Of a stretch of DNA of 64,000 bases, positions 24,623-51,287 are shown piece after piece. Each line of letters starts with the position of its first letter. Within the stretch, counting starts at the first letter, position 1. Under the pieces are notes generated by a model. The model was given only the letters and a program-made list of their open reading frames with translations, had not been told where the DNA came from and made no database searches. Source of the DNA: an uncultured virus (IMG/VR IMGVR_UViG_3300026116_000037) (lineage: Duplodnaviria; Heunggongvirae; Uroviricota; Caudoviricetes); IMG/VR virus record IMGVR_UViG_3300026116_000037. One strand, 5' to 3'. Made by a program: the position numbers and the translations under genes.

Positions 24623-24652
24623 ACATCGGCACACGGGCCTGAAATCTTTAGG
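24623..24652 (-). promoter_or_regulatory. sigma28-like promoter copy
   Basis: CCTAAAG-N15-GCCGATGT. Confidence 0.7.
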
Positions 24653-24668
24653 CCCTAAGCGCCTGGGC

Positions 24669-25109
24669 CTAAATCCGGACGCTTCCCGATCCGCGGCACG
24701 GGGCGCACAGACGGCCGTCAGGGGCGCCGCCAGTTCCATCGCAGCCGGCGCAGGCTCGCCGGGAGGGCTTGGGCTCGGGCGAATCGGCGATGCCTTCGCC
24801 GTAGTAGGCTCGGCGGCGGGCCGGGTCGGTCAGCGGATCGGCCTTTGCCTCGCCGACAAGAGCGCGCGAGAACAGGCCGAGTCGCGTCGCTTCCGCTTTG
24901 CCGCGCGATTCCGCCTCAGCGTTAGAGCGTGCGGCGTCGGCTTCGGAGCGTACGATCTCGGCGCACGTGCACGGATCACAGTTGTCACAGACCGCTTGCT
25001 GACGCTCGCAATAGCACCCGACGGGCGACGTCCCCGTTGTAATAGCCGAGGATAGGAGGAATATCGCCTTTCCGCGCAGGCATCCTTTGGCATGAAGTTT
25101 CGTGCTCAC
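24669..25109 (-). CDS. Cys-rich protein with DnaJ-type zinc finger
   Basis: CAGCDGTG and CAPCRGSG. Confidence 0.5.
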   Translation of the reverse strand: MSTKLHAKGCLRGKAIFLLSSAITTGTSPVGCYCERQQAVCDNCDPCTCAEIVRSEADAARSNAEAESRGKAEATRLGLFSRALVGEAKADPLTDPARRRAYYGEGIADSPEPKPSRRACAGCDGTGGAPDGRLCAPCRGSGSVRI

Positions 25110-25991
25110 GGTCTAGCCTCCAGCGCCGCGCCTACGCACTTATCGATCGAGCCCCCGCGCTCACGGCACGCGGCGAAGGCCTGTCCGGCAGGGCTGCACG
25201 CGAGCACCGCGATCGTGAACAAGATCGTGAGGGCCGCCCAGAAGCTTCGGTGTTTCACCACGCGTCACCTCGACAATGGCGGCAGCATTCGGGCTCGCTA
25301 CGCTCCTCCGGGTTGTGATGCGCCCACAACAGAAACGCGGTCGCGCCGTGCAAGACGCTCTCCATGACCCGCTTCGCCGTGATGCTGTGAAGCAGAGACC
25401 GGCCGCGCTTGCGGATCTCACCTTCGAGAGAAAGGAGGCGCATCTTCAACCGCCAGCGGCCGTTGTTCGAAAGCTTGACGCTACCGGATAGCGCCGACGC
25501 CTCGCCGTGTTCCTTGATGAGGGTCGAGAAGCGGCATATCTTCGACCTCGGCCACAAAATTCGCTTCGGGGTTGTACATGCCTCACCACCCGATCGCCCG
25601 GTACTTGAAGACCCGAGAACGGGCGCGGGCCTCGCGCTCTTTCCGTCGGCGGCGCTCGCGGCGCAGCTCTCTCCGATACTCGCGGGCCCGGAGCACGACC
25701 TCGCCCACGCAGAGCAAGATCAGCGCGCCGAGCCCGAGCGAGAAGGCGACTTGGCGTGAGATGATGAAGACTTTCATTTGGTTGATCATTGAGTGACTTT
25801 CCCCGCGATCCGGTGCTCCAGATCCGTGATCCGTTTCTTCAGGTCCGCGATCTCTCGATCCTTGCTCTCGTCGGCTTCCTTGCGGCGCTCCTCGCGCCGC
25901 CGGCCGCGAGCGTCGCCGATGGCGATCACTCCGTTCGAGATCGAGACCGCCAGATCGATCAGGAGCTTGAACGTGTCGAGCGGGCTTCGGG

Positions 25992-26396
25992 TCATGACGC
26001 CGCGTCGACGGGCGCCGCGACTGCGACCGGCTCCGGATTCTTCTCCTCCGACTTGAGCGCGATCGAGTAGAACTTGACCACGACGCGCTCTGTGAGCAAC
26101 TCATCGAGGGAGTTGTCAAGCCGAATGGTGTAGGACTTGAGCGACCCTTGTTCAACGATCAACGATCGCTCTGTTTCGCCGTTCCGGTTCATGAGGCGGA
26201 TCTCGATGCTCCGCACGTCGCCACGCGCCGCCCACGACGCCAGATCGTGATCGTCTTTGGAAGCTCCTCGCTCCAGGATGAGGACGCCGGACTTCCCGCG
26301 GACGCGCAGGCTACAGCGGCTGAAGCCGTAGTTTTTGGCGCCTTGGATCTTGACGATGAAGGCGTAGGACCTCAGAAACGTGCGACCGATCTTCAT
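25992..26396 (-). CDS. T4 gp19 / contractile-injection tail-tube-like protein (divergent)
   Basis: FIVKIQG...GFSRCS, ILERG, LASW, RSIEIRLMNRNGE, DELLTERVVVKF pattern; AAGGAG SD. Confidence 0.55.
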   Translation of the reverse strand: MKIGRTFLRSYAFIVKIQGAKNYGFSRCSLRVRGKSGVLILERGASKDDHDLASWAARGDVRSIEIRLMNRNGETERSLIVEQGSLKSYTIRLDNSLDELLTERVVVKFYSIALKSEEKNPEPVAVAAPVDAAS

Positions 26397-26519
26397 GGGA
26401 GTCTCCTTCTGACGTGGCGTTGTCTCGGCTCTGTGGCGCGAGAGACTTTAGAGCTTGAACCTAAGCGCTTAGGAAGTCAACAAGGATTTTTTACTGGAGC
26501 TTGTCGGGGCCGATAAACG

Positions 26520-26557
26520 AAAAGGGGCCTGGTACCCTCTCGGGAAGCCTAGGCCCC
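26520..26557 (-). terminator. intrinsic terminator
   Basis: GGGGCCT/AGGCCCC stem followed by TTTT on the minus strand. Confidence 0.65.
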
Positions 26558-27321
26558 TCGGCGATATCCGCCGTAGACGTGTCCTACCGCTCTTCCGCGT
26601 AGGTGCGTTAAAGAGCGGCGGTTGGGTTCAGGGTGCGGGCCGCGTTCAGGCTATTCGCCCCGCGGCCTCGGCTAAACCCTCGGCGCGAAGCCACCACCTC
26701 CACTCGACTCGCGTGGATGATTGCGCATTGGTGGGCGCTTGGCCCCTCGGTGCCGGCACTTCTTGGGAGGTCCGGCGCACCCACGAGCCGGCGTCTCCGC
26801 GCGACTCGCCACAGGGACGACCGTCGAACCAGAACACTTCGGCGGCCAGAAGCCACACGAGAGCGATCGCGGCCAGAAGGACGGTCCCCATGCTCACCTC
26901 GAACAATAGCAGAAAGCTAGGGTCTTAGGAAGGCCGCGAGCGCCTCACGCGCTTGAAAAAGATCCGGAAGTCCACGCGTGTGGGGCAGACGGCCGCGGTG
27001 CCGTCGGGCCGGTAGGCGAGGAACACGAACGCGCGATCCGCGCCCACGACGTAGAGCCGCGTCCCCTTCTCGACCTCGACCACGGTCCAGCCTCGATAGG
27101 TCGGGAGGTTCACGGACGCACGCCCCGGACGTCGACAGATTGCCAATACACGGCGCGGCGCCCGTCGGCAAACTCGAAGATGAAGCGTTGCCAACGCCTC
27201 ATCTCACGCCCATCGCGGAAGTGGTCGATCCAGAATTCCGCGAAGATTCCCTCCGGACACGCCGGCTCCGCGCAGGGCATTCCGGGCTGCCGGTCGTGCT
27301 CGCACCGTGTTGTCCCTGTGC

Positions 27322-30885: not shown

Positions 30886-30920
30886 CCATCGTCTCGTTCG
30901 GACCCATTCTTAAGGCCTTA
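30886..30920 (-). promoter_or_regulatory. sigma28-like promoter copy (leaderless)
   Basis: TAAGGCCTTAAG-N15-GACGATGG-N8-ATG. Confidence 0.7.
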
Positions 30921-30925
30921 CCTTT

Positions 30926-31138
30926 CTATGCGGACTCGCGCCACGTCCTCAGCGTCGTCCGAGCCTCCGCGACCGCCTCCTCGACCGTGTGGCCGGCGCC
31001 GAGGATCTCGATCGTTTGGCCGCGCTCGTCGTTCAGGTAGATCGCGACCTCGAACTCCGTCTGACCGCCCCACATGTCGGCGAGGTCGGCCGCGGTGTCG
31101 ATCCTGATTCCGGGCTTGGCGACGTTCCGAGTGCTCAT
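30926..31138 (-). CDS. small hypothetical protein
   Basis: ATG 7 nt after conserved promoter. Confidence 0.7.
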   Translation of the reverse strand: MSTRNVAKPGIRIDTAADLADMWGGQTEFEVAIYLNDERGQTIEILGAGHTVEEAVAEARTTLRTWRESA

Positions 31139-31145
31139 GATCTAT

Positions 31146-31180
31146 CCATCGGCTCAGGGCGATAAAAACTTAAGGCCTTA
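31146..31180 (-). promoter_or_regulatory. sigma28-like promoter copy (leaderless)
   Basis: TAAGGCCTTAAG-N15-GCCGATGG-ATAGATC-ATG. Confidence 0.8.
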
Positions 31181-32026
31181 GCTTTCCTGTCTAATCGAAC
31201 CGCTTCGACTTGAGCGCCTTCCGTCCCTCGTCGGTCAGCTCCCACTTTCCACCACGACTCACGACCAAGCGCATGGAGGCCGCGGTGGCAAGAAGAAGGC
31301 CTTGAGCAGGACGCCGCGAGGGGCCTTCCTCGTCGAGCCGACGGAGAAGCGCGCTCATGACGTTGACGAGCTTCATCTCGCCGCCTCCATCACCTCGCCC
31401 GCGATGCCCTCGCGCATAGCCCTCTCCAACGTGGCGCGTTGCATTTCGAGCGCGAAGCGGTTCGAGGCGGCTCGGCGCTCCGGCGGCGGCGGGCCGGCGG
31501 TACCGTCAAACGCGTCACACGCGAGGTAATACTCGGCCCAAAGCTCGACGGCGCGCACGTAATTCGGGTCCGGCGGAGGGAACTCCCCGTGCCAATCGCG
31601 GCGCGAGTCGGGAGGGCTCACGGCTCACGCTCGTAGGTGTGAGGTGCCCCGCGAACCATCCGCCGATCGCCGAACGGCCGACGCCCGGTCTTGCGCACCG
31701 TGATCTCGATCTCGTCGCCGTCCCGAACCTCAGCGGCCGCGATCGCCTCCTGAATGACGTGCGGCTGCACCTGTCCTAAATCGGCGTCGGTCTCACTGTT
31801 ATGCAGCACGTTGCGGTATGGTCGGTGGTTCCCAGACCAGTATTCGGTGTAGGTCACTACGACTTTACCGACGGGCGTCGGCTTCGTGGTGGCGTCCTCC
31901 CACACCCCGAGGTTCTGATCAGCGGCGGCGTGGCTATCGTAGTGCCCCGCCTCGCGGGCGCACCTTCTTCCGTGAAACTCGGACACGCTCTCGCACTGCA
32001 TTTGAGTCCTCTTGTTGGGTGTTCGA

Positions 32027-32158
32027 TTACTTCGCCGCCGGCTCCGGCCGCGGCGCGACCTTGCGCACCAGGGCGAACCACGCGGCGGCGAGTAGGCCGA
32101 AGTCCTCGACGTCGAAGGGGAGGACCGCGGCGGGGTGGGGAGCGTTCGTCGTGTTCAT
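32027..32158 (-). CDS. 43-aa microprotein (not in ORF track)
   Basis: MNTTNAPHPAAVLPFDVEDFGLLAAAWFALVRKVAPRPEPAAK; leaderless promoter. Confidence 0.7.
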   Translation of the reverse strand: MNTTNAPHPAAVLPFDVEDFGLLAAAWFALVRKVAPRPEPAAK

Positions 32159-32165: not shown

Positions 32166-32200
32166 CCATCGGCTCGTGGCGAAAAAAACTTAAGGCTTTA
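32166..32200 (-). promoter_or_regulatory. sigma28-like promoter copy (leaderless)
   Basis: TAAAGCCTTAAG-N15-GCCGATGG-ATAGATC-ATG. Confidence 0.8.
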
Positions 32201-32461
32201 GAATCACCAGTTCATGGCGCAATGATTCGCTGCGCGGCTTGTCCGTAAACAGCACCTCGCCCGGCTCGGTCACGCCCGCGATCAGCATCGTGACTCCGTA
32301 CTCGTTATCGGAGGTCTGGACGCAAAACGCGAGCAAGCCCCCTCCTTCGAGGTGAATCTCGACATTTTGGAGCGGCGTTCCTCCGTTGGATTTGCCGCCC
32401 GAGTTCAGCTCGACGCGCGCGATCTTCCGGCCGCGCAAGAGCTTCGAGACCTCGCGGCTTG

Positions 32462-32887
32462 TCACGACGCGGCCTTGTGCCCTTCGCAGTCGTGGCACGC
32501 CTCCGCGTGCGCCTGGCGAACGAAGTCGGCCCGGTTGGCGGCGTGGTCGAGTGAATAGCCGAAGCCGTGATCGGTGATGAAGCTCTCGATCTGATCCTCG
32601 CGGAGGTAATGCCGCGTCGAGACCCGCGCCGTGACGTAGCAGCTCGCCCACCGGCCGCCGGTCAGCCCATCGGCTCGCTCCGCCAGCGCGTATGAAGTAG
32701 GAGTCTTGAACCACGTGCCGTCCGGGAGCGGCTCCCAGAAGCCGTCATAGTCGAACGCTACGAGCTGGAGGGGCTCTTGTTGCGGGTAGACGTCCCACCG
32801 CGTGGAGCGACGCGCCCAATAGAGCCCGTCTTGCGGGCGGTCGGCGGTCGGCTTAGGGGCTTCGGTGCGGGTATTGGTCGTGTTCAT
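32462..32887 (-). CDS. hypothetical protein
   Basis: ATG 7 nt after conserved promoter. Confidence 0.7.
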   Translation of the reverse strand: MNTTNTRTEAPKPTADRPQDGLYWARRSTRWDVYPQQEPLQLVAFDYDGFWEPLPDGTWFKTPTSYALAERADGLTGGRWASCYVTARVSTRHYLREDQIESFITDHGFGYSLDHAANRADFVRQAHAEACHDCEGHKAAS

Positions 32888-32894: not shown

Positions 32895-32931
32895 CCATCG
32901 GCTCGCGGTAAGAAAAACTTAAGGCCTTAAG
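32895..32931 (-). promoter_or_regulatory. sigma28-like promoter copy (leaderless)
   Basis: CTTAAGGCCTTAAG-N15-GCCGATGG-ATAGATC-ATG. Confidence 0.8.
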
Positions 32932-33687
32932 TGGTTAAGCCGCAAGACATCCTCGTCAACCACCCTACCGTCAGGGTGGCGCCACAGCAAATCCGTGGGG
33001 CTGGGGACGAAACCGCTCAGCCGTAGCGCCTCGATCAACTTCTCGCGCTCGGACCTACGTCGCGGCGGAGGTGGCGGTAGAGGAGCGGCTATCGGCTCCG
33101 ACCCGGGTGTCAACGCGTCCACCTCTCGGCGCGCCGCCTCTATGAAGTCCTCGACGTACTCCCTCATAACCCCTCCTAGCAGTCTTTGTGGCAGGCAAAC
33201 CTTATAAGACCTCAAAAGCAGCCAGACCGTGAAAAGCGATCAGCCGCCAGCTCGGCGGCCGCCTTGGTGTTGGGGTTGTCGATCCCGTACAGGTCCATAG
33301 GAAGATCGTCGCGGGACATGCCCAGCTCCGCGGCGGCGCGCCGGAGCGGCTCCCGGTGGTGGTGGTTGTCGTCTATCCGCCACAGCTTCACCAGGCGCTC
33401 CCGCAGCACCTCCACGGGCTCGGCGATCTCCTCGACCGTCACTCGGTACCGCCGAATGTGGACGACGCCGTTGAAGCACGATGGCTCGACGCGCGACGCG
33501 GTGATCGCACTGCCTAGGTAGGGCTCGCCCATGACCTCGTGCGTCTGCGGGTATTTCGGGGCGGCCGGCGCGGCGGGCTTCTTCGATCGGCGTTTGGTGG
33601 GCATTTGTGTCCGGCTTTCTTTTCGGTACCTTTGCGGGCTTGTTTGGGTCCTCCGATCCTTTTCACAGGCATCGGAGGCGAAGTTAT

Positions 33688-34475: not shown

Positions 34476-34631
34476 CTACTGCTTCCGAACGGCGTCAAAC
34501 CAGGCGGCCGCGACCGGGCCGAAAAAGAGGATGTCGAGGCGGAGCTTGTCGGCCTTCGTGACGGCGGCGCTCACGAGGGTGACAACGGAGGTCTTCGAGG
34601 GGCAGGTCTGGGCGAAGGGCTTGGAGTTCAT
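34476..34631 (-). CDS. 51-aa microprotein (not in ORF track)
   Basis: MNSKPFAQ...FFGPVAAAWFDAVRKQ; AAAAGGA SD. Confidence 0.65.
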   Translation of the reverse strand: MNSKPFAQTCPSKTSVVTLVSAAVTKADKLRLDILFFGPVAAAWFDAVRKQ

Positions 34632-34676: not shown

Positions 34677-34713
34677 ACATCGGCACGCCCTTCGAAAACC
34701 TTAAGGCCTTAAG
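34677..34713 (-). promoter_or_regulatory. sigma28-like promoter copy
   Basis: CTTAAGGCCTTAAG-N15-GCCGATGT. Confidence 0.75.
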
Positions 34714-36949: not shown

Positions 36950-36957
36950 GATTGATC

Positions 36958-37315: not shown

Positions 37316-37432
37316 TGCACCGCCCGTGCCTACGCTGGGCCGTTCGGCGGGCCCCGCCTAGCCTCGGGTAATATCTCCCGACGTTGCTTCCGAGTCTACG
37401 GTTTTTGTTGCTTCTGTTGCCTCCGAGGCTAC
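37316..37432 (-). promoter_or_regulatory. sigma54 promoter with upstream enhancer
   Basis: AGGCACGGGCGGTGCA (37331-37316); GTAG-N9-CAAC-N5-CAAC-N7-GTAG-N9-CAAC at 37432-37383. Confidence 0.75.
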
Positions 37433-38053
37433 GCCCTCCTGCTCCTCCGCCGCCGCCGCCTTCCGCTCCAAGTAAGCCTTTCTCGATAGCGCCCGAATGG
37501 CGACGATCTCCGCCGCCGAACGCTCCGCGTAGCCCTCCTCTGGTATTTCTTCGACGTCCTCCGCATCCGCCTCCGCCTCCGCGAATGAATGGAGCCACCG
37601 AGCAAACTCCGGCTCGTAATGAGGGCTGTGCGGGTTGCCGTGGCGCTTGATAATGTAGGCGTCTTTGCGTCCTGTCGGTAGGCGGCCGGAGTCGATGCAG
37701 CGATTCATAACGGAGCCGATCCACCCGTTCGTTCGCAGGTACTTTTCTTGCGTGTCGTTGATCTCTCGCGTGAGCCTGGCTCTTTCCTCGGCGTCGGCGG
37801 TGCCGCGAAGGCGCGCGCGGAGAGTTTGCAGGGCGTAGCGCAGCTCGGCTTTGTATTCCGCCTTACGCATTATACGATTCATGATCTTTTCCGCCCTGGA
37901 GAGCTTCGGGCGCCCGCGCGGGCGGGGGGCCGTGCCGGCGTCGAAAGCCTCCGCCCGCGCGGCGGCGCGCTTGGCCTTGGTCACCGTCTGATAGTAGCTC
38001 TGGTCGGCCGCCTTCTTACGCTGGGCACGAAGTGCCGGATCCAGCCTCTTCAC
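37358..38053 (-). CDS. hypothetical protein with AT-hook-like RGRP motif
   Basis: RPRGRPK; GTG overlapping upstream stop. Confidence 0.55.
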   Translation of the reverse strand: MKRLDPALRAQRKKAADQSYYQTVTKAKRAAARAEAFDAGTAPRPRGRPKLSRAEKIMNRIMRKAEYKAELRYALQTLRARLRGTADAEERARLTREINDTQEKYLRTNGWIGSVMNRCIDSGRLPTGRKDAYIIKRHGNPHSPHYEPEFARWLHSFAEAEADAEDVEEIPEEGYAERSAAEIVAIRALSRKAYLERKAAAAEEQEGVASEATEATKTVDSEATSGDITRG

Positions 38054-39334: not shown

Positions 39335-39554
39335 CGGTTAATTTTAGCGGCTTCTGGGCCGGACGCTAGTTTTATGTGATTAATCCTTCGAGTGCACCGG
39401 ATCGGTAACTCTAATAATAAATGCGGCGCCGCTGGCGCATTAAGTGCATAAGTAAAGCCGGCATAGGCCTCTCAGGAAATTGCGCTAAACCCGTATGAGA
39501 GCCGAAAAATAACCTACCCGCGTCATGACGGCCGCGAATAATCAAGGTTTCGTT

Positions 39555-39749
39555 ATTCGTCTGACACTTTCATTCCGCTGTATAGATCCTCTCGGCCTCA
39601 AAAAGTATAATCTATTAATTCGAGTCAAGAAAACTTAAAAATGATGCAAGACAGCAGGTAGGGACTTACGGAATTTGGAGCAATAATCATTGATTCTACT
39701 CTTTGTCGAGGAGAGGGTCTATACAGCGGAATGAAAGTGTCAGACGAAT
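39555..39749. repeat. 39-bp inverted repeat (1 mismatch) flanking a 117-bp AT-rich spacer
   Basis: ATTCGTCTGACACTTTCATTCCGCTGTATAGA(T/C)CCTCTC at 39555-39593 and reverse complement at 39711-39749. Confidence 0.95.
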
Positions 39750-39866
39750 GGCAACGACGTGCCGCGGCACTAGACGTAACGAGTAAGTTTTTGTTACTCG
39801 GCCACCGAAAGATCTTGCGTCCTAAGCGCTAAGGATTTAGGCTCTAGCTTCTCGGTCCTGACGCTC

Positions 39867-42146: not shown

Positions 42147-42162
42147 TTGCTAAGCTCTTAGG

Positions 42163-43134
42163 ATGGCGTTTAGCAAAATGACCCGGGAGAAGTACGCGGT
42201 TTTAGTTGACGCGTTCGTTAAAATCGGCGGCCCGGTGTTCGCACGGGTGGCTAAAGAGGCCGGCCTAGATCGCGAGACCGTTAAAAAGGGCTGGGATCGC
42301 GGATGGCCCGAGGTCGGCGATTGGGCGGCCCCAATTTCGGCCCGGTTTAAGGACGCCCGCGACCCCCTCGTCTACCCCTCCGAATCTGGGCCCGGCACAG
42401 GAAAAGCGAATGATTCCAAGGACTCCGATATATGGTCACGGCATGACCATACGTTGCCATATGTGACCATACGTGGCGATACGTCCCGACCTGCGCCCGG
42501 CCCGGCCTCAGGGTCAGCGTTTGAGCCGGTTTCTCCCCCATCTACCCCCGTAAGCCAGCCTACTATATCGCCCGACACCGGCGCCTCCGCACCCACAACG
42601 GACATGGCGCCAGCGACCGCGCACCCCGCGGGATGGACAGCCGCCCAAGCAAAGGCCCGGGATCGTGAGCCCACGCTGGTGCTGGCGGCCTCGAATCTGA
42701 CGGTCGGCCTGAGCAACGCTGTGCACGCCGTGATCACGGCCCTCACGCAGAAGGCCCACCTACTCGACCACCTCGGCGAAGTGGGCGACGGCAAAGGCGG
42801 ATTCATGCCTGACCCCCACGCCGCCAAGCACTATGTGGAGGCCCTGGCCTCGATGGTGGCCAGCGCCGATAAGCTGGCGCAAACCACCCTCAAGATCATG
42901 GAGGCCGGCCGCCTCAACACGGGCGAGGCACAGAGCATCACCGAGGAGCGCGGCAAGCGCTCGACACAGGTCGATCCAGGCGAGGCCATGGCCGCCATGG
43001 CACGCATGGCCGCCGTCGCAGCAAGCGCTATGCGGGGGCGTGCGATCGCCACCCACTACAAGGACCGGGACGAGGCGGGCGTGATAGACGCTACGGTCGA
43101 GCCCGCCACTCCAGCGCCCGCGCCCGAGGGCTGA
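42163..43134 (+). CDS. probable terminase small subunit
   Basis: N-terminal HTH with RETVKKGWDRGW, helical core, GEAQSITE and terminal VIDATVE patterns typical of TerS. Confidence 0.45.
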   Translation: MAFSKMTREKYAVLVDAFVKIGGPVFARVAKEAGLDRETVKKGWDRGWPEVGDWAAPISARFKDARDPLVYPSESGPGTGKANDSKDSDIWSRHDHTLPYVTIRGDTSRPAPGPASGSAFEPVSPPSTPVSQPTISPDTGASAPTTDMAPATAHPAGWTAAQAKARDREPTLVLAASNLTVGLSNAVHAVITALTQKAHLLDHLGEVGDGKGGFMPDPHAAKHYVEALASMVASADKLAQTTLKIMEAGRLNTGEAQSITEERGKRSTQVDPGEAMAAMARMAAVAASAMRGRAIATHYKDRDEAGVIDATVEPATPAPAPEG

Positions 43135-43674
43135 ACCCCCTGTTTTCTCGCCCCGCCGTGGCACACACGTTGTAAATACACAGGGGCATAGACCTATCTA
43201 GGCGTAACCATTGGGCCGCAAACGATTAACTAAATCGTTTGCCCTCCCCGCCCGCCCCGAACCGCGTGTCATCTACACCCACAAGGTAGGACAGGGTAGG
43301 GGGTTCGGATACGACTGCCCTACCTCTAGCCTCGGGGGCGCGCCCTACCTGCATGAAATTTTGTGCGGGATCCCCGGCAAACGGTACTTTCTGCACCGCG
43401 TCAATTATTACCGGCCCGCCAGCTAAACTCCCTAAGGTCCGAGCCCGCCCGCTATTCCCATCCGTCCCTAAGACTTAAACCGAGGCCGAGCCCGATCATG
43501 GTCGCCGCGAGGCCGAGCCCAAAGATCGGATCGGCGGCCGGCCCCGCGCGCCCTCCTCCGGAACCGGGTCGAACCCTAAGCGTTTCCGGATCTTGCCTTA
43601 GCTTTCCGCGGTTTTAGGAACCGGTCCCGCTCGCGCACGCGAACCCTCTTGAAAATTTTTTCCAGAAAAATTCC

Positions 43675-43709
43675 TAAGCCCTTAAGGCTCTAGACGTCCG
43701 AGCCGATGA
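43675..43709 (+). promoter_or_regulatory. sigma28-like promoter copy (leaderless)
   Basis: TAAGCCCTTAAG-N15-GCCGATGA-ATAGATC-ATG. Confidence 0.8.
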
Positions 43710-43716
43710 ATAGATC

Positions 43717-44076
43717 ATGAGCACGACGCCGACCGTCCGCCCCGCCACCGGCCCCGCCACCGGCCCCGCCACCGGCCCCGCCACCGGCCCCGCCACCTAC
43801 GTCCCCGAGATCGCCTTGAACCAAATCAAGGCGCTGGATTATTGGGCCTTCGCCCGCTGGGGCGTCAAGGACGTCCTCTCTTTCAACGGGGACACCCTGC
43901 AACTGAACTGCGCCCGCGGGCGCCGGATCCTCGTGACGCTCGACCGCGGCACCGACACCTACCGGATCTCCGTCGGCCGCGTCCGCAACTTCGAGTTCCG
44001 CGAGCTGGCCTCGGATACGGGTGCCCACGCCGAGGATCTCGTCATCGCGATCGACACCTTGATCGAGCGGGCGTAA
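43717..44076 (+). CDS. hypothetical protein with 12-bp (PATG) tandem repeat
   Basis: Leaderless start; CCCCGCCACCGG repeats at ~43740-43797. Confidence 0.7.
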   Translation: MSTTPTVRPATGPATGPATGPATGPATYVPEIALNQIKALDYWAFARWGVKDVLSFNGDTLQLNCARGRRILVTLDRGTDTYRISVGRVRNFEFRELASDTGAHAEDLVIAIDTLIERA

Positions 44077-44128: not shown

Positions 44129-44524
44129 ATGTCCACCCGCCCGACCCGAGCCAAGAACTTCGCCCGCACCCAAGCCCTCGTCAAGGTCTTCGCCCCGAAG
44201 CAGCTCCACGACGCGATCGACGCCACGCGCACCATGGGCGAGCTGGAATTCGTGGCCAAGATCGGCGCTGGCTTCGCGGCCTCCCTCGCGGCCGCGCCCG
44301 CTCCGGAGCGCTTCACGCTCTTTCTCCTGGACGCCGGCCCTAACAAGATCGGCACCATCAAAGCGATCCGCGAGATCACGAATCTCGGGCTCAAGGAGGC
44401 CAAGGACCTGGCGGACGCGGCGGGCGGCCATCCGGTCAAGATCCTGGAAGGGGTCGACCACCGCAGGGCCAAGGCCGGATATGACGTCCTGAGCGGCACG
44501 GGAGCCAAGGCCGAGATCGGCTAG
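44129..44524 (+). CDS. rplL: ribosomal protein bL12 (L7/L12) C-terminal-domain homologue
   Basis: FTLFLLDAGPNKIGTIKAIREITNLGLKEAKDLAD...ILEGV...GAKAEI. Confidence 0.85.
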   Translation: MSTRPTRAKNFARTQALVKVFAPKQLHDAIDATRTMGELEFVAKIGAGFAASLAAAPAPERFTLFLLDAGPNKIGTIKAIREITNLGLKEAKDLADAAGGHPVKILEGVDHRRAKAGYDVLSGTGAKAEIG

Positions 44525-45300: not shown

Positions 45301-45354
45301 CATTTAGGCCCCCGAGCCGCAGGCCCGAGAAAAAAATTCTTTACGTTCTAGTCT

Positions 45355-45389
45355 TAAGCGCTTAATTTTTAGATCGGTCGAGCCGATGT
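45355..45389 (+). promoter_or_regulatory. sigma28-like promoter copy (leaderless)
   Basis: TAAGCGCTTAAT-N15-GCCGATGT-CTAGATC-ATG. Confidence 0.75.
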
Positions 45390-45396
45390 CTAGATC

Positions 45397-45681
45397 ATGA
45401 TGACAACGACGACGGAAACGACGACAATCAGCGCCGCTATCAGCGACATCATTAGCAACCATCTCGGCTCCGTGCCCGAAATCGAAGTCGACGACGCCGA
45501 GACCACCAACACCTACGATCTCGACGAGCAAACCCACGTGTATAGCGATGACGACTTCGCGGCGGCCGAGCTGGAAGAGGTCCTCCGCCTCACGCGCGCC
45601 GCGCTCTCGGCCTCCGACGCGAACGAATCCGAGTGGTTCACGCGCGAGGCGCTCGACATTCTTTCCCGGATCGATTCCTAA
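45397..45681 (+). CDS. small acidic protein
   Basis: D/E-rich 94 aa; leaderless start. Confidence 0.7.
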   Translation: MMTTTTETTTISAAISDIISNHLGSVPEIEVDDAETTNTYDLDEQTHVYSDDDFAAAELEEVLRLTRAALSASDANESEWFTREALDILSRIDS

Positions 45682-45713
45682 GGCCTTAAGTTTTCTCGCC
45701 CGCGAGCCGATAG
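45679..45713 (+). promoter_or_regulatory. sigma28-like promoter copy (leaderless)
   Basis: TAAGGCCTTAAG-N15-GCCGATAG-N7-ATG. Confidence 0.8.
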
Positions 45714-45720
45714 GATCTGC

Positions 45721-46077
45721 ATGAGCACTACGATTTACACCGGAAAAGAAAAGCGCTACAACGGCAAGTGCAAATGCGGCTCGCGTTTCTCGACGCTCGC
45801 GACGCGAGTGCAGACCGCGGCGCACGTTCTCGGCCCGGTGGCCGACGGCGCTTCCGGCTTCGTCGAGTTCCACGCCGAGGGGCGCAGCTTCTCCGAGTCG
45901 CGGCTCTCGAACGACTCCCTTTGGTTTCGCTGCGCGTGCGGCCGGTGGAACCGCGCCGAGCCGGTGCGCGGGACCATCGTCTCCTCGAAGAAGTGCAACG
46001 CCCTTTGCCTCGCGTCCTCCGGCCACTCGTGCGAGTGCTCGTGCGGTGGTAAAAACCACGGCGCGCAGCACGGGTAG
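45721..46077 (+). CDS. Cys-rich small protein
   Basis: KCNALCLASSGHSCECSCGGKNHG. Confidence 0.7.
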   Translation: MSTTIYTGKEKRYNGKCKCGSRFSTLATRVQTAAHVLGPVADGASGFVEFHAEGRSFSESRLSNDSLWFRCACGRWNRAEPVRGTIVSSKKCNALCLASSGHSCECSCGGKNHGAQHG

Positions 46078-46744
46078 CCCGCTCTCCTCAACCACCGAAA
46101 GAAAGGAACGCCGCCCATGTCCTCCACGCCCAGCGCCTCCCTGCCCAACACCTCCCGGTTCGCCACCTGTCCCACCTGCGCCGCTTCCGTCGCGGTCGTC
46201 GAAGGTCGCCTCATCACGCACGACGCGCCGAAGCCGTGCCGCGCGGCTTGCTCCGGCTCGCGCTCCGCCGAACAGCTCGGCCGCGCCGAGGGCAAGATCG
46301 TCGCCGCCTTCCTCGGCGCGCTCGCCGAGGAGCACGACCTGGATTGGGTGATCTCCTATGAGGACGCGCCCGGCGAGCCCAAGGCCTTCCGCGTCGTGCG
46401 CGACGGGCTGAAGTTGCTGGAGCCGCCGCACGTGATCGGAGAGACCGAGACGGAGGCGCGCGATTGCATCTCGCTCGCGGCCGTGGGAGCCGATGCGATC
46501 CGGCGATACGACGGCGGCCGGCGATGATCAAAGGCACGACCTTCAAGCGCACGCGCTACCGGCTCGGCACGATCGTGTGCGGCGCGGCCTATTACTTCAC
46601 CGACCTCCCCGAGTTCCGAACGGAGATCGCGGCGCGCGCCTACCTCCGCGAGCACCGGACCGCGCTGGGCCGCCCGGTGTATGTCTGGCGCACGCGCGAG
46701 TGCTGGGCCCGCGGCGTGAACTACGGCACCGACGTCGAGGGTCC

Positions 46745-46850
46745 GTTGCCTGAGGAACAACAGAAACAACAGCAGGCGTTGCCGGCCGCTCAACAACCGC
46801 CCGCCCCGGACGCGGATTCGTAAGGGCTTAGAGTCGGCACGGCGCCTGCA
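46745..46850 (+). promoter_or_regulatory. sigma54 promoter with upstream enhancer
   Basis: Enhancer 46745-46794; CGGCACGGCGCCTGCA 46835-46850. Confidence 0.75.
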
Positions 46851-46864
46851 ATACTCCGGATCAT

Positions 46865-47021
46865 CTTCTCAAAACCCCGCCCGGAAGGGCGCCCTAGCAG
46901 GGACCTAGGGAGGAATGGGGGCACACCCGAGAAGGCCTCGAACACTTTCAAAACCCCGCCCGGAAGGGCGCCCTAGCAGGGACCTAGGGAGGAATGGGGC
47001 ACACCCGAAAGTGTTCGAGGC
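46865..47021 (+). ncRNA. tandem structured RNA with GGA loops (CsrA/RsmA-sponge-like)
   Basis: Two ~60-nt near-identical units, each closed by a different stem; starts at the expected sigma54 +1. Confidence 0.6.
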
Positions 47022-47058: not shown

Positions 47059-47634
47059 ATGTACAAACATTGGATCGCTTTTCGAAAGACGGCACAAGGC
47101 ACCGTGATCCACTTGTGGCCCGACGGCGCGATCACGTGGGCGCTCGGACTCTACGTCAAGGGCTCGCCACACGCGCGAACGGACGCGCAGATCGCCGAAG
47201 CGCGCACGGCTGGCTGGCTCGTTATGGGCGAGGTCGAGCTTTACGACGATGACGAGGTCCCGGCGCTGATCAAGGCGGCTCGATGGGCGGCGGCCCGCGG
47301 ACTGGATCCCGGCGCGATGCGGGCCCATCTTCACCGGCCTACCGTGTTGCGTCCCGTGTGGGAAGTGGTCGAGGCGGATCGCGACGGCAATCCGCGCGTG
47401 CGTGTTTGGAAGCTCCCGCGCCTTCGATGGCCGGGGCTCAGCGTGTGGTCGGACGGCGCCACTTATTCAATCTGGCGAGAGATCTCCGGCGGCCGCGGAA
47501 CCTATGGCCCGACCGGGATCGAGTTCTCGAACCTCGCGGAGCTTTCGGCGCACCTGTTGAGCGACTGTCAACACATGCAACACAAGGCGTTGCCGGCCGC
47601 TCAACAACCGCCCGCCCCGGACGCGGATTCCTAA
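47059..47634 (+). CDS. hypothetical protein
   Basis: MYKHWIAF...; C-terminus runs into the next enhancer. Confidence 0.55.
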   Translation: MYKHWIAFRKTAQGTVIHLWPDGAITWALGLYVKGSPHARTDAQIAEARTAGWLVMGEVELYDDDEVPALIKAARWAAARGLDPGAMRAHLHRPTVLRPVWEVVEADRDGNPRVRVWKLPRLRWPGLSVWSDGATYSIWREISGGRGTYGPTGIEFSNLAELSAHLLSDCQHMQHKALPAAQQPPAPDADS

Positions 47635-47661
47635 CCTTTTCGAGGTGGCACGCCCGGTGCA
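47556..47661 (+). promoter_or_regulatory. sigma54 promoter with upstream enhancer
   Basis: Enhancer 47556-47605; TGGCACGCCCGGTGCA 47646-47661; ATG 47678. Confidence 0.8.
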
Positions 47662-47899: not shown

Positions 47900-48005
47900 G
47901 TTGCGCGGGCGACAACAGAAACAACAGCTTTCGTTGCCTCGTGAGCAACATCCGCCCGCCCCGGTCGCGGATTCCTAGCCTCTTAGGGCCGGCACACCCC
48001 GTGCA
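47900..48005 (+). promoter_or_regulatory. sigma54 promoter with upstream enhancer
   Basis: Enhancer 47900-47949; CGGCACACCCCGTGCA 47990-48005; ATG 48022. Confidence 0.8.
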
Positions 48006-48243: not shown

Positions 48244-48255
48244 AAATTATTTTTC

Positions 48256-48290
48256 TAAGGCCTTAAGGTTTTGGCGCCCGGTGCCGATGG
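48256..48290 (+). promoter_or_regulatory. sigma28-like promoter copy (leaderless; ATG 48298)
   Basis: TAAGGCCTTAAG-N15-GCCGATGG-GATAGGT-ATG. Confidence 0.8.
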
Positions 48291-48573
48291 GATAGGTATG
48301 AACACGACCAGCACCCCGGACACCAGCCGCTTCCAGACCCGTGGCGTTCTCGCGGGCGCCTACAAGGCCGGCTCCGCCGCCGAGGCCCGCGCGATGCTGA
48401 CCCACCTCGTGGACCTCACGATCAATCACGGTTTCACGGCGCTTTGCCGCCGCGTCAAGGCCGGCAACATGGCGGACGAGTATTCGGGCACGTCGGCCGA
48501 GCTGGCCGCCCGCCCGACGTGCCCGATCTGCGCCGCGAAGTGGGACCGCCTCCAGAAGTAAAAAATAATTTCT

Positions 48574-48608
48574 TAAGGCCTTAAGGTTTACCACGCCCGA
48601 GCCGATGG
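48574..48608 (+). promoter_or_regulatory. sigma28-like promoter copy (45-aa ORF 48620-48757 follows)
   Basis: TAAGGCCTTAAG-N15-GCCGATGG. Confidence 0.8.
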
Positions 48609-49091
48609 AATAGTTAATCATGGCGCTCTCCTCCCTCTCCGGTTTCGGCTTCGGCGGCGCGGTCCTCCCGATCGTCAACCCCGCCGCCCTCGTCAAGGTC
48701 TCGGCCCCGGTGAAAGAAGTAAGGCCGCCCCCGCCCCACGAAAGGGATCTCACATGAGCCGCGAATCCAAGCCCTCCGCGCCCTCCGCGCCCTCCGCGCC
48801 CTCCTACGTCTACAAGGTGCATGACGGCAAGCTCTACCGCGTGAAGGTGAAGAAGATCACGGCCACGGGAACGGTCTTTCTCGAAACGAGGCCGCTTTGT
48901 TTCGGCTGTGCGGCGATGGTCCATCCGCAACGCGCCCACTTCACCGCGGAGTCGGCGCTCGCGGCCGCTCGCCTCCACGCCGAGCGGGCCGCCGCCGATG
49001 CCGCGTTCGCGCTGGAGCAAGTCTCGAACCTCACGCCGGCCGACGCCATCGATCCGAAATCCTGACGGCTGCCTCCGACACAACAGAGTCC

Positions 49092-49188
49092 CAGCCGAAG
49101 CAACACCTTCCGTAGACTCCGAGGCAGCAACAGCCGGCGCTAAGGGCCCGCACGTTTCGAGGGTCCTAAGAACGGCACAGAGCGTGCA
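49092..49188 (+). promoter_or_regulatory. sigma54 promoter with degenerate enhancer
   Basis: CAGC-N5-CAAC-N7-GTAG-N9-CAGC; CGGCACAGAGCGTGCA 49173-49188; ATG 49202. Confidence 0.65.
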
Positions 49189-49926
49189 TTTAGATCCGGA
49201 CATGATGAGGACGACGCCGATGCTGAAAGTCAAAGACGCACAATTCTGGATCGCCGGGCTCGCCGGCCTACCCGAGGCACACGCCCTCCGCCAGATCTCG
49301 CACGAGGTCGAGGCGCAGCGCCTGGCCCTGGCGGCCGCGCGCAGTCTACCAGCCCGCGAGCTGGCCGAGTGGCGCAAGAGCGTTGAGATTCTGGAGCGCA
49401 CCAGCTCCCGCTTTCGCAACGCCATGGAGCGCCGGCTCCGCGCGCGCGAGGGCGCGGCCGCGATGTCGCTCGACGTGGCCGAGGACGGCCCGATCCGCGG
49501 GAACAGCTGATCGCGCGTGGTATCCTTAGGGACTCACATGAGCAAGCTAACCGACGGCCTCAAGACCTGGATCGCTCAGCGCCTCGCCGGCTCCTCCGCG
49601 CGCTTAGCGGTCGCCGAGATCAACGCCGTTCTGAGTCGGCAGCGCGCCGTGCTGGAGCAATGCAAGGCGGATCAGCAGTGGCCCGACGGTATCAACCCGG
49701 ACGACCTGGAGAAGTCGATCAACTTGCTCGAAGTTGGCCTCCGGAGGGCGCAGGAAGCGGCCAGCGCAGAGCTTGAAGCGAGCATGACCAACGCCGCCGC
49801 CGAGGCACGAGCCCTCGCCATGGCCGAGCTGCGTGCGTTCGAGAGCCTCGCGGATGCTCCTTCTCCCGCCGTCCCGGCCACGCCCGCGGCGGCCGACGGG
49901 GATACGTCGGCCGAGCCCGCGACGCT

Positions 49927-50033
49927 GTTGACCAAGAAACAACAGAGGCAACAGAGTTAGTTGTCCGGCGCGCAACCGGCCCGCGCGCCACGCCCCGGAT
50001 CGGCGGGGCTTTCGAAGTGGCACGGGCGCTGCA
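49927..50033 (+). promoter_or_regulatory. sigma54 promoter with upstream enhancer
   Basis: Enhancer 49927-49976; TGGCACGGGCGCTGCA 50018-50033; ATG 50047. Confidence 0.8.
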
Positions 50034-50230
50034 TTGATCCGGAGTCATGAACACCAACGGGATCGAAATCAAGGGCGGCCGGATCGTCAACGTGGGCGAC
50101 ATCGTGACCAACTTCGGGCAGCGTGCCGTTATCGTCGGGATCATCGACGGCTTTCTCCGGGTGAACGGGTTGCGCCACGATGGCAAGAAGGATCGTCGCG
50201 GGACGTGGATCGCGAAGCCGGAACTTTGCG

Positions 50231-50260
50231 CCTAAAGATTTCTTACGCTCTAGCCGATGG
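50231..50260 (+). promoter_or_regulatory. sigma28-like promoter copy (leaderless; ATG 50269)
   Basis: CCTAAAG-N15-GCCGATGG-N8-ATG. Confidence 0.75.
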
Positions 50261-51092
50261 GATCAATCATGAACACGACGACGCCGAAGACGAAGAGCCC
50301 CCGGGCGATCAAGATGGCCGAGCGCCGCGCGGAAGCGGCGGCCCACGCGGAACGGATGGCGAAGATCTACGCCGAGAACGCGGCGATCGTCACTACCGGG
50401 AAGTGCCCGGAGTGCGGCACCAAGCTCTACAGGAACTCCTCGCTCGCCGGTTGGTGGCAATGCGGCCACTACGGCGCGCCTGGCTTCCAGGCTGAGGCGG
50501 GCCCGCACTGTTCCTTCCAGCTCTTCACGAAGTAGCCCACGGCCGCCCACACCAAAGGAGCCCGGACACATGAAGCTCATTCAAGCCGAGACGGCCTATC
50601 GGAAATTCATCGGCCGCCGAGCGTTGTGGACGTCTACCTTCGGAGCGATCTCCGCGGACGGCAAAACGAAATTCGACGCCGAACGTGGGCTCGAAGCCGC
50701 GCTCCACCGGCTCGTGACAGAGGACGGAACGCCCGTCGTCAAGCACGACGCCCGCGGCGGCACGTGGGTCGCGCAGCGCGAGAACCACGGCTCGTGGTCC
50801 TACTACCACATCGACCAGACCACGGGTGAGCATAGGTGCGTGTGCGTGGTCGGGGAGCGAGACACTTGCCTGGCCTTCATGGAGTCCCACATGCGACAAT
50901 GGTGCGAGCCGTGATCAAGCCCGGCCGCAACGCCATCGACCCGCACGGCCGTAACGTGTATGTGGTCGACGTGACTCCGGACCCGAGCGGAGACAAGGCC
51001 CGGGACCTCGTGAAGGTCCGGCTCGCAGGGTCGTACGGCGCGCACCTACAGTATCCGCGCTCGACCCTTCGGCCGGCCTAAAAATCTTTTTC

Positions 51093-51127
51093 TAAGGCCT
51101 TAAGGTTTCCGGCGGCCGAGCCGATGG
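51093..51127 (+). promoter_or_regulatory. sigma28-like promoter copy (leaderless)
   Basis: TAAGGCCTTAAG-N15-GCCGATGG-GATAGGT-ATG. Confidence 0.8.
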
Positions 51128-51134
51128 GATAGGT

Positions 51135-51287
51135 ATGAATGCGACGACGACTCAGAACGAGGTAGCCCGGATCGAGCGCGCCAAGTTCCTGGCCTTCTTC
51201 GCCATCGACCCGGCCCTGTCGCCGGCCGAGCGGATCGCCAAGACCCGCGAGGCGCTGGCCGAGCTGGACGGCATCGGGGAGTGGTAG
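51135..51287 (+). CDS. 50-aa microprotein (not in ORF track)
   Basis: MNATTTQNEVARIERAKFLAFFAIDPALSPAERIAKTREALAELDGIGEW. Confidence 0.7.
   Translation: MNATTTQNEVARIERAKFLAFFAIDPALSPAERIAKTREALAELDGIGEW

Follow-up and report, generated by a model that had tools for sequence, protein, structure and literature searches.

The window analysed here, a 64-kb stretch of DNA, comes from an uncultured, probably temperate, high-GC soil phage with a genome of roughly 100 kb. It contains a tyrosine integrase gene (8239-9408), and the nearest virus record is rated 60% complete by CheckV, with ~40% of the genome lying outside the window. Between 24.6 and 51.3 kb we found two hyperplastic, divergent arms of small unknown genes on either side of a control region that holds a 61-nt inverted repeat (39555-39615 / 39689-39749, 87% complementary). 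The arms are made up of small accessory operons ("cassettes"), each with its own promoter, and these promoters form two non-housekeeping classes: 13 of the sigma28/FliA type (class A) and 6 of the sigma54 type (class B), which together serve ~19 cassettes (Table 1). Both classes occur far above chance, have the same orientation as the genes in every copy and stand at such a short distance from the ATG that leaderless or nearly leaderless mRNAs are predicted.

Table 1. Promoters and other features of the window, with the genes that follow them.
Feature	Position	Strand	Associated elements and genes
Class A, variant -35 CCTAAAGATTT	24624..24659 (G of GCCGAT 24630)	-	~50-nt leader, GAAAGGA before ATG 24562
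Degenerate class A, TAAGAATG-N11-GACGATGG-N8-ATG	30887..30922	-	Primase-like gene; likely true start the MSTKT codon run at 30877
Class A	31147..31182 (G of GCCGAT 31153)	-	Leaderless ATG, 70-aa ORF 30926-31138
Class A	32167..32202 (G of GCCGAT 32173)	-	Leaderless 43-aa ORF 32027-32158 and three downstream ORFs
Class A	32896..32931 (G of GCCGAT 32902)	-	Cassette 32190-32887
Class A	34678..34713 (G of GCCGAT 34684)	-	A/T-rich upstream tract, ~40-nt leader; 34476-34631, lipoprotein gene 33688-34434, 33212-33604
Class A	43666..43729 (G of GCCGAT 43702)	+	Leaderless 43717-44076, then L7/L12 C-terminal-domain homologue 44129-44524
Class A, variant -35 CTTAATTTTT	45346..45409 (G of GCCGAT 45382)	+	Leaderless 45397-45681
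Class A	45670..45733 (G of GCCGAT 45706)	+	Leaderless 45721-46077, then 46117-46823
Class A, AAAAATTATTTTT upstream tract	48247..48310 (G of GCCGAT 48283)	+	Leaderless 48298-48561
Class A	48561..48639 (G of GCCGAT 48601)	+	ATG 48620, 12 nt past GCCGAT
Class A, variant -35 CCTAAAGATTT	50230..50263 (G of GCCGAT 50253)	+	ATG 50269
Class A	51084..51147 (G of GCCGAT 51120)	+	Leaderless 50-aa ORF 51135-51287
Class B, GGCACGGGCGGTGCA at 37316-37330	37316..37440	-	Dyads 37383 and 37416; zinc-ribbon ORF 36989-37303, ATG 12 nt past TGCA
Class B, 46836-46850	46745..46850	+	Dyads 46745 and 46778
Class B, 47647-47661	47556..47661	+	Dyads 47556 and 47589; ATG 47678, 16 nt past TGCA
Class B, 47991-48005	47900..48005	+	Dyads 47900 and 47933; ATG 48022
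Class B, 49174-49188	49066..49188	+	Degenerate dyads; ATG 49202; promoter kept in related contig L008
Class B, 50019-50033	49927..50033	+	Dyads 49927 and 49960; ATG 50047
Class C, TAAGCT as -10	42150..42159	+	Leaderless 42163-43134, small-terminase-like helix-turn-helix protein (Atlas features)
Class C	54424..54433	+	Directly before large terminase gene (54441)
Class C, further copies	1291, 4940, 19678, 26450	-	
GGA-rich structured leader	46851..47010	+	Two 62-nt tandem repeats
A/T-rich divergent control region	39335..39866	.	Separates the two arms

The class A motif is TAAGGTTT-N11-GCCGATGG, in which a -35 element (C)TTAAGG is followed by an 11-nt spacer after TAAGGTTT and the -10 element GCCGATGG, often with an A/T-rich tract upstream. 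A loose regular expression returned 12 distinct sites, all with GCCGAT at -10, besides which there is one degenerate copy with GACGAT (30887-30922). The strict fixed-gap pattern matched 8 sites compared with a mean of 0.005 and a maximum of 1 in 200 dinucleotide shuffles; these 8 copies carry TAAGGTTT or TAAGTTTT before N11, while the remaining ones are variants. The consensus of sigma28/FliA promoters with canonical spacing is TAAAGTTT-N11-GCCGATAA. In the open complex of Pseudomonas aeruginosa sigma28, as described in PMC12784957, GCCGATAA occupies -15 to -8 and TCTAAAG occupies -36 to -30, and applying this numbering to the class A spacing would make the A of the phage ATG position +1. An ATG lies 9-12 nt past GCCGAT in 11 of the 13 copies, and these 11 should therefore be placed for transcription to start at its A. 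Class A shares with sigma28 promoters the -10 element and its position, the -35 element with its spacing and the occurrence before FliA-regulon genes described below. The -35 element sits inside a palindrome, CT(T)AAGGCCTTAAG, which hints at an additional dimeric regulator, and the near-identity of the promoter copies may be partly due to recent duplication.

Class B has the form GGCAC-N5-NTGCA, and the six copies, all co-oriented with genes, are the only matches of GGCAC-N5-NTGC[AT] in the window (shuffle mean 0.66, maximum 4). The GG (-24) and GC (-12) are invariant and exactly 10 nt apart in all six, but the base before the GC is G in four copies and C in two, compared with the T of the textbook -12 consensus TTGC(A/T). 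Upstream of five of the six copies lie two GT[TA]G-N9-CAAC dyads spaced 33 bp apart (22 strand-hits of this pattern vs 1.41 expected) at about -75 and -107, that is, within the ~70-150 bp upstream where activator sites are found. The distance from the start of the proximal dyad to the GG is 58-59 nt in four copies and ~11 nt, or one helical turn, more in the fifth. Such an arrangement resembles an enhancer to which an AAA+ activator binds, and leaders of about 2-6 nt are predicted for the mRNAs. A third, sigma70-like class (TAAGCTCTTAGG; class C) serves genes outside the cassettes, the terminase gene among them, with 7 sites of [TC]AAGCTCT[TA]A[AG] vs 0.035 expected. An earlier note on this DNA had proposed sigma28-type promoters, sigma54-type promoters and a third promoter class for core genes, and these counts bear out all three, the sigma54 type as a motif family.

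Class A is also found in front of bacterial genes. Scanning metagenome contigs with GGCCTTAAGNTTT-N11-GCCGAT returned 50 loci, 13 of them in strain variants of the phage and 37 elsewhere, and 33 of these 37 were examined after dropping 3 near-duplicates and 1 edge hit. At 26 examined loci the motif is followed within 200 nt by the start of an ORF of ≥50 aa; 3 of these 26 ORFs encode FlgM (38.2, 42.3 and 30.3 bits, cut-off 25), and an HDOD protein and an HD-GYP-like protein are encoded by one ORF each. The extended class A motif, without the palindrome seen in the phage, hence immediately precedes flgM, which encodes the anti-sigma28 factor, in three bacterial contigs from the environment. In two of these contigs, L230 and L263, the gene order is an enhancer-binding-protein gene (receiver domain, Sigma54_activat and HTH_8), fliA and flgM. 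Here, flgM is leaderless with its ATG 9-10 nt past GCCGAT, and fliA is preceded by a sigma54 promoter, TGGCAC-N5-CTGCA, then 12 nt and the ATG, which is the same ATG-proximal geometry as in phage class B and likewise has no T before the -12 GC. The dyads differ, being GTTGC-N7-NCAAC in the phage vs GTCA-N6-TGAC upstream of bacterial fliA. FliA of both contigs is closest to proteins labelled Myxococcales/Polyangia; for the L230 protein, the three matches whose names give an organism share 80-84% identity with it.

A link of the phage promoters to the flagellar sigma54-to-sigma28 cascade of the host is plausible because the class A motif precedes flgM and a class B-like geometry is found at fliA, and the accessory genes of the phage may depend on host motility state. 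The best explanation overall, which we consider rather probable, is that the sigma28/sigma54-type cassette promoters are read by host RNA polymerase and that the arms are mosaic. It builds on what is directly observed, i.e., the motifs with their statistics and geometry, their presence before flgM and fliA in bacteria, and strain mosaics. Host multisubunit RNA polymerase would read class A with a sigma28-family factor and class B with sigma54 and an enhancer-binding protein, and use of the host's own FliA and RpoN is the most economical reading; the cassettes would in that case be expressed in step with the flagellar cascade of the host, while genes outside the cassettes, such as that for the terminase, would be expressed from the leaderless, sigma70-like class C. 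Start sites, the sigma factors used and host-state dependence are inferred from sequence. The non-T base before the -12 GC, the class A palindrome, the near-identity of the copies and the dyad mismatch with bacterial fliA were counted against this explanation.

More tentatively, it is possible that this phage is temperate, infects uncultured, flagellated Myxococcota in soil, does not itself encode a transcription factor for its ~19 accessory operons and is wired into the host's flagellar checkpoint cascade, in which an enhancer-binding protein and sigma54 would lead to FliA that is freed on FlgM export. The suggested link to Myxococcota rests on three protein names and promoter similarity rather than phage-host DNA. 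If true, the cassette set that is made would be selected by the host's commitment to motility rather than by a phage clock. This might support infection by way of the flagellum or restrict the expression of prophage cargo to swimming cells, and the leaderless starts would free cassettes from ribosome-binding sites.

We regard it as rather unlikely that the promoters, though of sigma28/sigma54 type, are read by phage-encoded factors from outside the window. Class A would then be a middle or late class served by a captured FliA-family sigma factor, and class B would rely on an enhancer-binding protein of the phage, so that expression would track the timing programme of the phage and not host motility state. 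Sets of near-identical promoters like the thirteen here are typical of the regulons of phage sigma factors, the phage dyads are unlike those of bacterial fliA, and with the nearest record only 60% complete, the unseen ~40% of the genome could encode a FliA-like sigma factor or an enhancer-binding protein, which we also counted against host readers. Furthermore, one of the class A copies stands before a primase-like operon, and reading by the host would make replication hostage to host FliA. However, no gene for a sigma factor, enhancer-binding protein or RNA polymerase was found in the 64-kb window, including in both early-looking operons beside the control region, and neither the six frames of G001 (bases 1-61,341) nor the called proteins gave a sigma, Sigma54_activat, FlgM or CsrA domain or a cognate AAA+ activator. 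In addition, flgM promoters of cells have the same motif and leaderless geometry as class A, and no phage sigma54 homologue is known to us. The sigma70 region-4-like miniprotein of the earlier note was not recovered either: six-frame searches with PF04545 and PF08281 returned nothing at E≤10, and Pfam and NCBIfam scans of the 60-70 called proteins found no sigma70 region 4 (Sigma70_r4, Sigma70_r4_2).

The GGA-rich leader forms four hairpins (GCCC-GGAA-GGGC and CCCUAG-CAGGGAC-CUAGGG; fold z = -4.13) and is non-coding because a strain variant has a 1-nt indel there. It contains 9 GGA in 160 nt vs ~2.9 expected from the window rate of 0.018 per nt, and all four hairpins have GGA in their loops, as GGAA and CAGGGAC. 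These features would suit an element bound by CsrA/RsmA, which would give the system a third tier of flagellar type, but we find this improbable given that the leader has no Rfam match at gathering score or at E≤1, that no CsrA is encoded in the window, that there is one such leader only and that GGAA is also a plain GNRA tetraloop. What stands of the GGA-loop RNA proposed earlier is a real, structured tandem-repeat leader that matched no CsrA-related family. The wider hypothesis of a phage plugged into host motility control keeps its three-class architecture and sigma28/sigma54 assignment, and its CsrA tier and miniprotein are not supported.

Strain variants of the phage differ by cassettes gained or lost at class A and class B promoters. 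One variant lacks window positions 32201-32873, with the junction inside a 56-nt promoter repeat of the class A copy at 32896..32931, and carries an extra 464-nt cassette; another lacks 49953-51080 (boundary 51081), and in another, 35919-37300 is replaced with the boundary (37301) at a class B promoter. Repeated promoters would in this way act as recombination points at which cassettes are added, deleted or swapped between strains. It is very improbable that the repeats serve mainly as sites of recombination or as operators, in the form of palindromes to which a phage regulator or a cassette-shuffling recombinase binds, with their promoter likeness secondary: the palindromes CTTAAGGCCTTAAG and GCAC-N5-GTGC (4 of 6 copies), the indel junctions inside repeats and the integrase gene would agree with this, but both the GG in GGCAC and the GC in TGCA are present in every copy, asymmetric and exactly spaced, the ATG distance is fixed in both classes, the class A motif precedes flgM in bacteria without such cassettes, and the 56-nt junction overlap fits ordinary homologous recombination.

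Among known systems, class A has -10 and -35 elements and a spacing in common with late flagellar promoters of sigma28 (FliA/SigD/WhiG) such as that of P. aeruginosa fliC, for which PMC12784957 gives a -10 GCCGAT(A/G)(A/G) at -15 to -8 and a -35 (C)T(A/T)AAG near -36 to -30. It differs from them in its presence in a phage in 13 copies, with predicted leaderless mRNAs and no flagellar gene downstream, in a -10 that ends in GG instead of AA and in a -35 inside a palindrome. Class B shares GG-N10-GC and two helically phased dyads with sigma54 promoters that have enhancers for AAA+ activators of the NtrC/FleQ/FlbD type, but has G/C before the -12 GC, 2-6 nt leaders, a dyad (GTTGC-N7-NCAAC) matched to no known activator and no activator gene in the window. 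Phage sigma-factor regulons (SPO1 gp28 and gp33/34, T4 gp55) likewise organise gene classes by many near-identical non-sigma70 promoters; here, in contrast, no phage sigma factor is found in 64 kb and the motifs are those of cellular flagellar promoters and not a phage-private consensus. Repeated promoters also flank small genes in the "morons" of lambdoid phages, a parallel to the cassettes. The PeSLs of T4-type phages are mobile regulatory cassettes that combine sigma70-like promoters with terminator stem-loops (Arbiol et al. 2010, PMC2839356), whereas the promoters of our phage are of sigma28/sigma54 type and terminator-like sites are not enriched (18 vs 13.2 and 16 vs 14.5 expected), so that promoter-terminator coupling is not seen. 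Strain indels bounded by a repeated promoter are seen, and as with the PeSLs described there, small ORFan genes of hyperplastic regions have repeated promoters on their flanks, and recombination between repeats leads to insertions, deletions and replacements between close strains.

Leftward genes run from 39.3 kb to base 1 of this tailed-phage fragment (64% GC) and encode a class II ribonucleotide reductase with a LAGLIDADG insert, a DEAD-box helicase, a tyrosine integrase, a PD-(D/E)XK nuclease, an RNase T-like exonuclease, an ATP-dependent ligase, a DUF5906 primase-helicase, and a primase-like protein. Rightward genes extend from 39.9 kb to the window end and encode an L7/L12 C-terminal-domain homologue, a T5 A1-like protein, the large terminase, portal, a MuF-like protein, an XkdF-type protease, and the major capsid protein. 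The nearest record (G001; 61,341 bases) runs collinear with the window and has a completeness rating of 60%, which implies a genome of about 100 kb with roughly 40% outside our view, and the DNA runs with a matching stretch are labelled rhizosphere or soil metagenome. Nucleotide searches gave zero matches among cultured phages. At the protein level, the large terminase shares no more than 30% identity with its phage relatives, the primase has weak matches only, and the capsid protein shares 37-41% identity with those of Stenotrophomonas, Rhodobacter, and Rhizobium siphoviruses of ~100 kb; species genomes scanned with the large terminase yielded zero prophages. Almost none of the proteins encoded between 24.6 and 51.3 kb, where small accessory operons ("cassettes") with a promoter each form two divergent arms, were named by Pfam, PHROGs, or NCBIfam, and a sequence search of three candidate proteins against solved structures returned coiled-coil noise only.

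Coordinates of promoters, genes, and repeats in the window, with segments that differ in strain-variant contigs
Position (strand)	Feature	Observation
1447-4203 (-)	Class II ribonucleotide reductase gene	Split by a LAGLIDADG or Hom_end-type insert with the look of an intein
4240-4935	Gene behind a class C site	
11568-11728	In-frame GC-rich tandem repeat, 15-nt unit	In the PD-(D/E)XK protein; probably encodes a Pro/Ala/Gly-rich linker
14765-15427	Exonuclease gene	Class C copy inside it at 14977 (-): possible internal promoter or chance match
15388-16440 (-)	NUMOD3-motif ORF, likely homing endonuclease	Flanked by the exonuclease gene and the next replication gene; codon usage poor relative to neighbours
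24630; 34684	Class A copies	Leaders of 40-50 nt with Shine-Dalgarno-like GAAAGGA or AAAAGGA
30887-30922	13th class A copy	GACGAT variant
32027-32158; 34476-34631	Paralogous small genes	
32201-32873	Absent from variant 1	Junction within a 56-nt class A repeat; variant 1 has an additional 464-nt cassette under a class A promoter of its own
33688-34434 (-)	Predicted lipoprotein, 248 aa, behind a class A promoter	Signal peptide and lipobox cysteine; moron-like cargo; repeated Y/F-x-x-x-N-F-x-G motifs, beta-gamma-crystallin-like by eye; no Pfam match
34963-35196	Helix-turn-helix and coiled-coil ORF, 77 aa	Nearest region-4 look-alike by eye; solved-structure search gave coiled-coil noise only
35919-37300	Replaced in variant 3	Boundary at a class B promoter
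37316 (-); 46836, 47647, 47991, 49174, 50019 (+)	Class B copies	49174 has degenerate dyads and is kept in a related contig (L008)
38465-39334	First gene of the leftward operon	No Atlas look-alike
39555-39749	Inverted repeat, 61 nt, 87% complementary, 73 nt between arms	Inside an A/T-rich 532-nt interdivergent region; partly replaced in one strain variant; may be an origin or early control element
42163-43134	Gene behind a class C site, 323 aa	Small-terminase-like helix-turn-helix signal (Atlas look-alike search)
43739-43798	In-frame GC-rich tandem repeat, 12-nt unit	In a class A cassette protein; probable Pro/Ala/Gly-rich linker
44129-44524 (+)	L7/L12 C-terminal-domain homologue in a class A cassette	Pfam 56 bits; N-terminal half unrelated to L12
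48022-48243; 50899-51081	Paralogous small genes	
49953-51080	Absent from variant 2	Spans two cassettes, one of class A and one of class B
52761-54398 (+)	T5 A1-like "DNA transfer" protein	phrog_1745, E 1.8e-141; 43% identity to Xanthomonas and Stenotrophomonas jumbo phage proteins; directly 5' of the large terminase gene
60920-61708 (+)	XkdF-type prohead protease	Fused DUF305 domain
62049-62238	In-frame GC-rich tandem repeat, 18-21-nt units	In the protein encoded ahead of the capsid gene; probable Pro/Ala/Gly-rich linker

The first class of cassette promoters (class A) is of the sigma28/FliA type and has the consensus CT(T)AAGGCCTTAAG(G/T)TTT-N11-G(A/T)GCCGATGG, of which repeat finding and regex scans recovered 12 copies in addition to the variant copy listed in the table. 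The left arm holds six copies (minus strand) and the right arm seven (plus strand), each co-oriented with its genes. A strict fixed-gap version of the pattern has 8 sites in the window, compared with an average of 0.005 over 200 dinucleotide shuffles. Several copies directly follow A/T-rich tracts such as AAAAATTATTTTT, which we take to be UP elements; on this reading a multisubunit host polymerase would be implied. Eleven of the 13 copies have an ATG 9-12 nt after GCCGAT, most commonly in the form GCCGATGGATAGATCATG, and the N-termini encoded behind these promoters read MNTT or MSTT. In a study of the Pseudomonas aeruginosa sigma28 open complex (PMC12784957), GCCGATAA occupies positions -15 to -8 and TCTAAAG positions -36 to -30, and with this numbering the A of the phage ATG would be +1, so that class A mRNAs are predicted to be leaderless.

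A cellular reference for these promoters came from metagenome contigs scanned with GGCCTTAAGNTTT-N11-GCCGAT, which gave 50 loci including 13 strain variants of the phage; 33 of the remaining 37 were examined, with three near-duplicates and one contig-edge match excluded. An ORF of at least 50 aa begins within 200 nt downstream at 26 of the examined loci, and three of these ORFs encode FlgM (L230, 38.2 bits; L260, 42.3 bits; L263, 30.3 bits; cut-off 25), the other named ones being one HDOD protein and one HD-GYP-like protein. FlgM is the anti-sigma28 factor, and its gene is a classic example of FliA dependence. The bacterial flgM promoters resemble phage class A also in features that the search pattern left free, namely the GG after GCCGAT and an ATG 9-10 nt after GCCGAT (L230 GCCGATgggtaggatATG versus phage GCCGATGGGATAGGTATG), and the GC content of their contigs (62-63%) agrees with that of the phage. 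L230 has the order enhancer-binding protein, fliA, class A motif, flgM, with Response_reg, Sigma54_activat, AAA_lid, HTH_8, and (marginally) FleQ domains in the enhancer-binding protein, and L263 shares the fliA-flgM arrangement. As an observation in its own right, the enhancer-binding-protein, fliA, and flgM genes are consecutive in both contigs (L230:1-3530 and L263:1-2033), with a sigma54 promoter ahead of fliA, a leaderless flgM behind the FliA-type promoter, and a FliA most similar to proteins labelled Myxococcales/Polyangia, which points to a flagellar cascade with near-leaderless regulators in uncultured Myxococcota.

The second, sigma54-type class of cassette promoters (class B) matches GGCAC-N5-NTGC[AT] at six sites in the window, compared with a mean of 0.66 and a maximum of 4 in shuffles, and its GG and GC are invariant and spaced by exactly 10 nt. 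By the convention that sigma54 promoters have their GC at -13/-12, leaders of about 2-6 nt are predicted, since an ATG lies 12, 13, 13, 16, and 16 nt after TGCA in five copies. Five of the six copies have paired GT(T/A)G-N9-CAAC dyads exactly 33 bp apart; across the window this pattern has 22 strand-hits where 1.41 would be expected. In four copies, 58-59 nt separate the start of the proximal dyad from the GG, and in the fifth this distance is ~11 nt (one helical turn) longer. Judged by sequence, this layout is that of an enhancer recognised by an AAA+ activator. Upstream of fliA, L230 and L263 both carry cTGGCAC-N5-CTGCA followed by 12 nt and the ATG, which is the geometry of phage class B, and the C before the -12 GC is common to two phage copies. 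The dyads upstream of bacterial fliA are GTCA-N6-TGAC, whereas those of the phage are GTTGC-N7-NCAAC, so that a different activator must serve the phage. Matches to the phage dyads in other viral contigs were rejected as chance, with a -24/-12-like site downstream in 1 of 80 fetched loci, a contig of 38% GC.

Behind the class B promoter at 46836 lies a 160-nt leader, at 46851-47010, with two 62-nt repeats, each forming the hairpins GCCC-GGAA-GGGC and CCCUAG-CAGGGAC-CUAGGG (fold z = -4.13), and with 9 GGA motifs compared with ~2.9 expected. A 1-nt indel in a strain variant argues that this leader is non-coding, and Rfam gave zero matches to it. Where an earlier note had seen a GGA-loop RNA, a structured, GGA-rich repeat leader remains but the CsrA component falls away, and any link to CsrA is speculation.

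Genes other than the cassettes carry a third, sigma70-like promoter (class C), [TC]AAGCTCT[TA]A[AG], which occurs in seven copies versus 0.035 expected and precedes the large terminase gene as well as others (see the table). The ATG follows TAAGCT by 6-10 nt, a spacing consistent with TANNNT as the -10 element, at -12 to -7, that thus predicts leaderless starts, and three copies have TGN before TAAGCT.

No Sigma70_r2, r4, r4_2, Sigma54_activat, FlgM, or CsrA domain was found in the six frames of G001, and the called window proteins include no polymerase, sigma factor, or AAA+ activator. From a window representing ~60% of the genome, the economical reading is that class A would be transcribed via host FliA and class B via host sigma54 with an activator. 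Three features weigh against simple host dependence: the class A -35 element sits inside a palindrome absent from the bacterial flgM promoters, the class A copies differ little from each other, and one of them stands before a primase-like operon. Under the reading by host FliA and sigma54, the cassettes would depend on the motility state of the host. The earlier note had placed the phage in the motility hierarchy of its host, and this proposal is partly supported, through its promoters: sigma28-type sites far above shuffles and with their motif before flgM in three bacterial contigs, a family of sigma54-type motifs with paired dyads and the geometry of a bacterial fliA promoter, and a separate class for core genes. 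It loses its CsrA tier and its sigma70 region-4-like miniprotein, for which every profile search came back empty. The observation is largely real, and both promoter types now have an independent cellular reference.

Regarding the host, 2,952 of 8,000 candidates scored against the FliA of L230 are related to it at E<=1e-40, and the three organism-bearing names among the 120 matches listed are Deltaproteobacteria bacterium (84% identity), Myxococcales bacterium (80%), and Polyangia bacterium (80%). Uncultured Myxococcota genomes have been reported to contain flagellar assembly genes (preprint 10.1101/2021.07.06.451402). A total of 53 enhancer-binding proteins has been reported for Myxococcus xanthus, and sigma54 is reported to be absent from Actinobacteria and Cyanobacteria (PMC3162934). 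Together, the FliA names, the flagellar genes, and this sigma54/enhancer-binding protein record make an uncultured flagellated Myxococcota lineage the best host candidate, an assignment that we consider an even call. Phylum-level samples of genomes around two metagenome-assembled genomes did not contain the L230 lineage: the best FliA identity among 251 genomes was 40%, and 401 genomes gave no match at E<=1e-70. A scan with the L7/L12 domain was uninformative on the host, returning 80 loci of 35-70% identity from many phyla.

Among viral contigs, the class A pattern occurs in only one close relative and one unrelated low-GC phage. The latter (G002; 57 kb, direct terminal repeats, 36% GC) is a complete phage with two near-identical sigma28-like promoters, GGGGCCTTAAGTTTTATTGAGCTGCA[G/A]CCGAT[A/G]AG, ~1.4 kb apart near one genome end. 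To our knowledge, phage transcription programmes have been described almost wholly through host sigma70, phage sigma factors, or phage RNA polymerases, and we found no described phage with many genes on FliA- and sigma54-type promoters in the open-access literature. Should these promoters be read by host factors, the phage would exemplify a virus that reads a bacterial developmental checkpoint by promoter mimicry alone. Promoter likeness is also a route for linking an uncultured phage to a host lineage, and here the link would indicate flagellated Myxococcota with leaderless fliA and flgM mRNAs.

The DNA contigs of four runs show strain variation and contig breaks at repeats, and strain-variant contigs differ from the window by indels that are bounded by promoters. 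Scans of the window for the sigma70 consensus and for terminators gave no enrichment. The PeSL cassettes of T4-type phages (PMC2839356) differ from those of our phage in having sigma70-like promoters and terminator stem-loops, but they are a parallel to its promoter-bounded cassette indels, and the mobile-promoter-cassette model of phage genome plasticity now covers alternative-sigma promoters as well.
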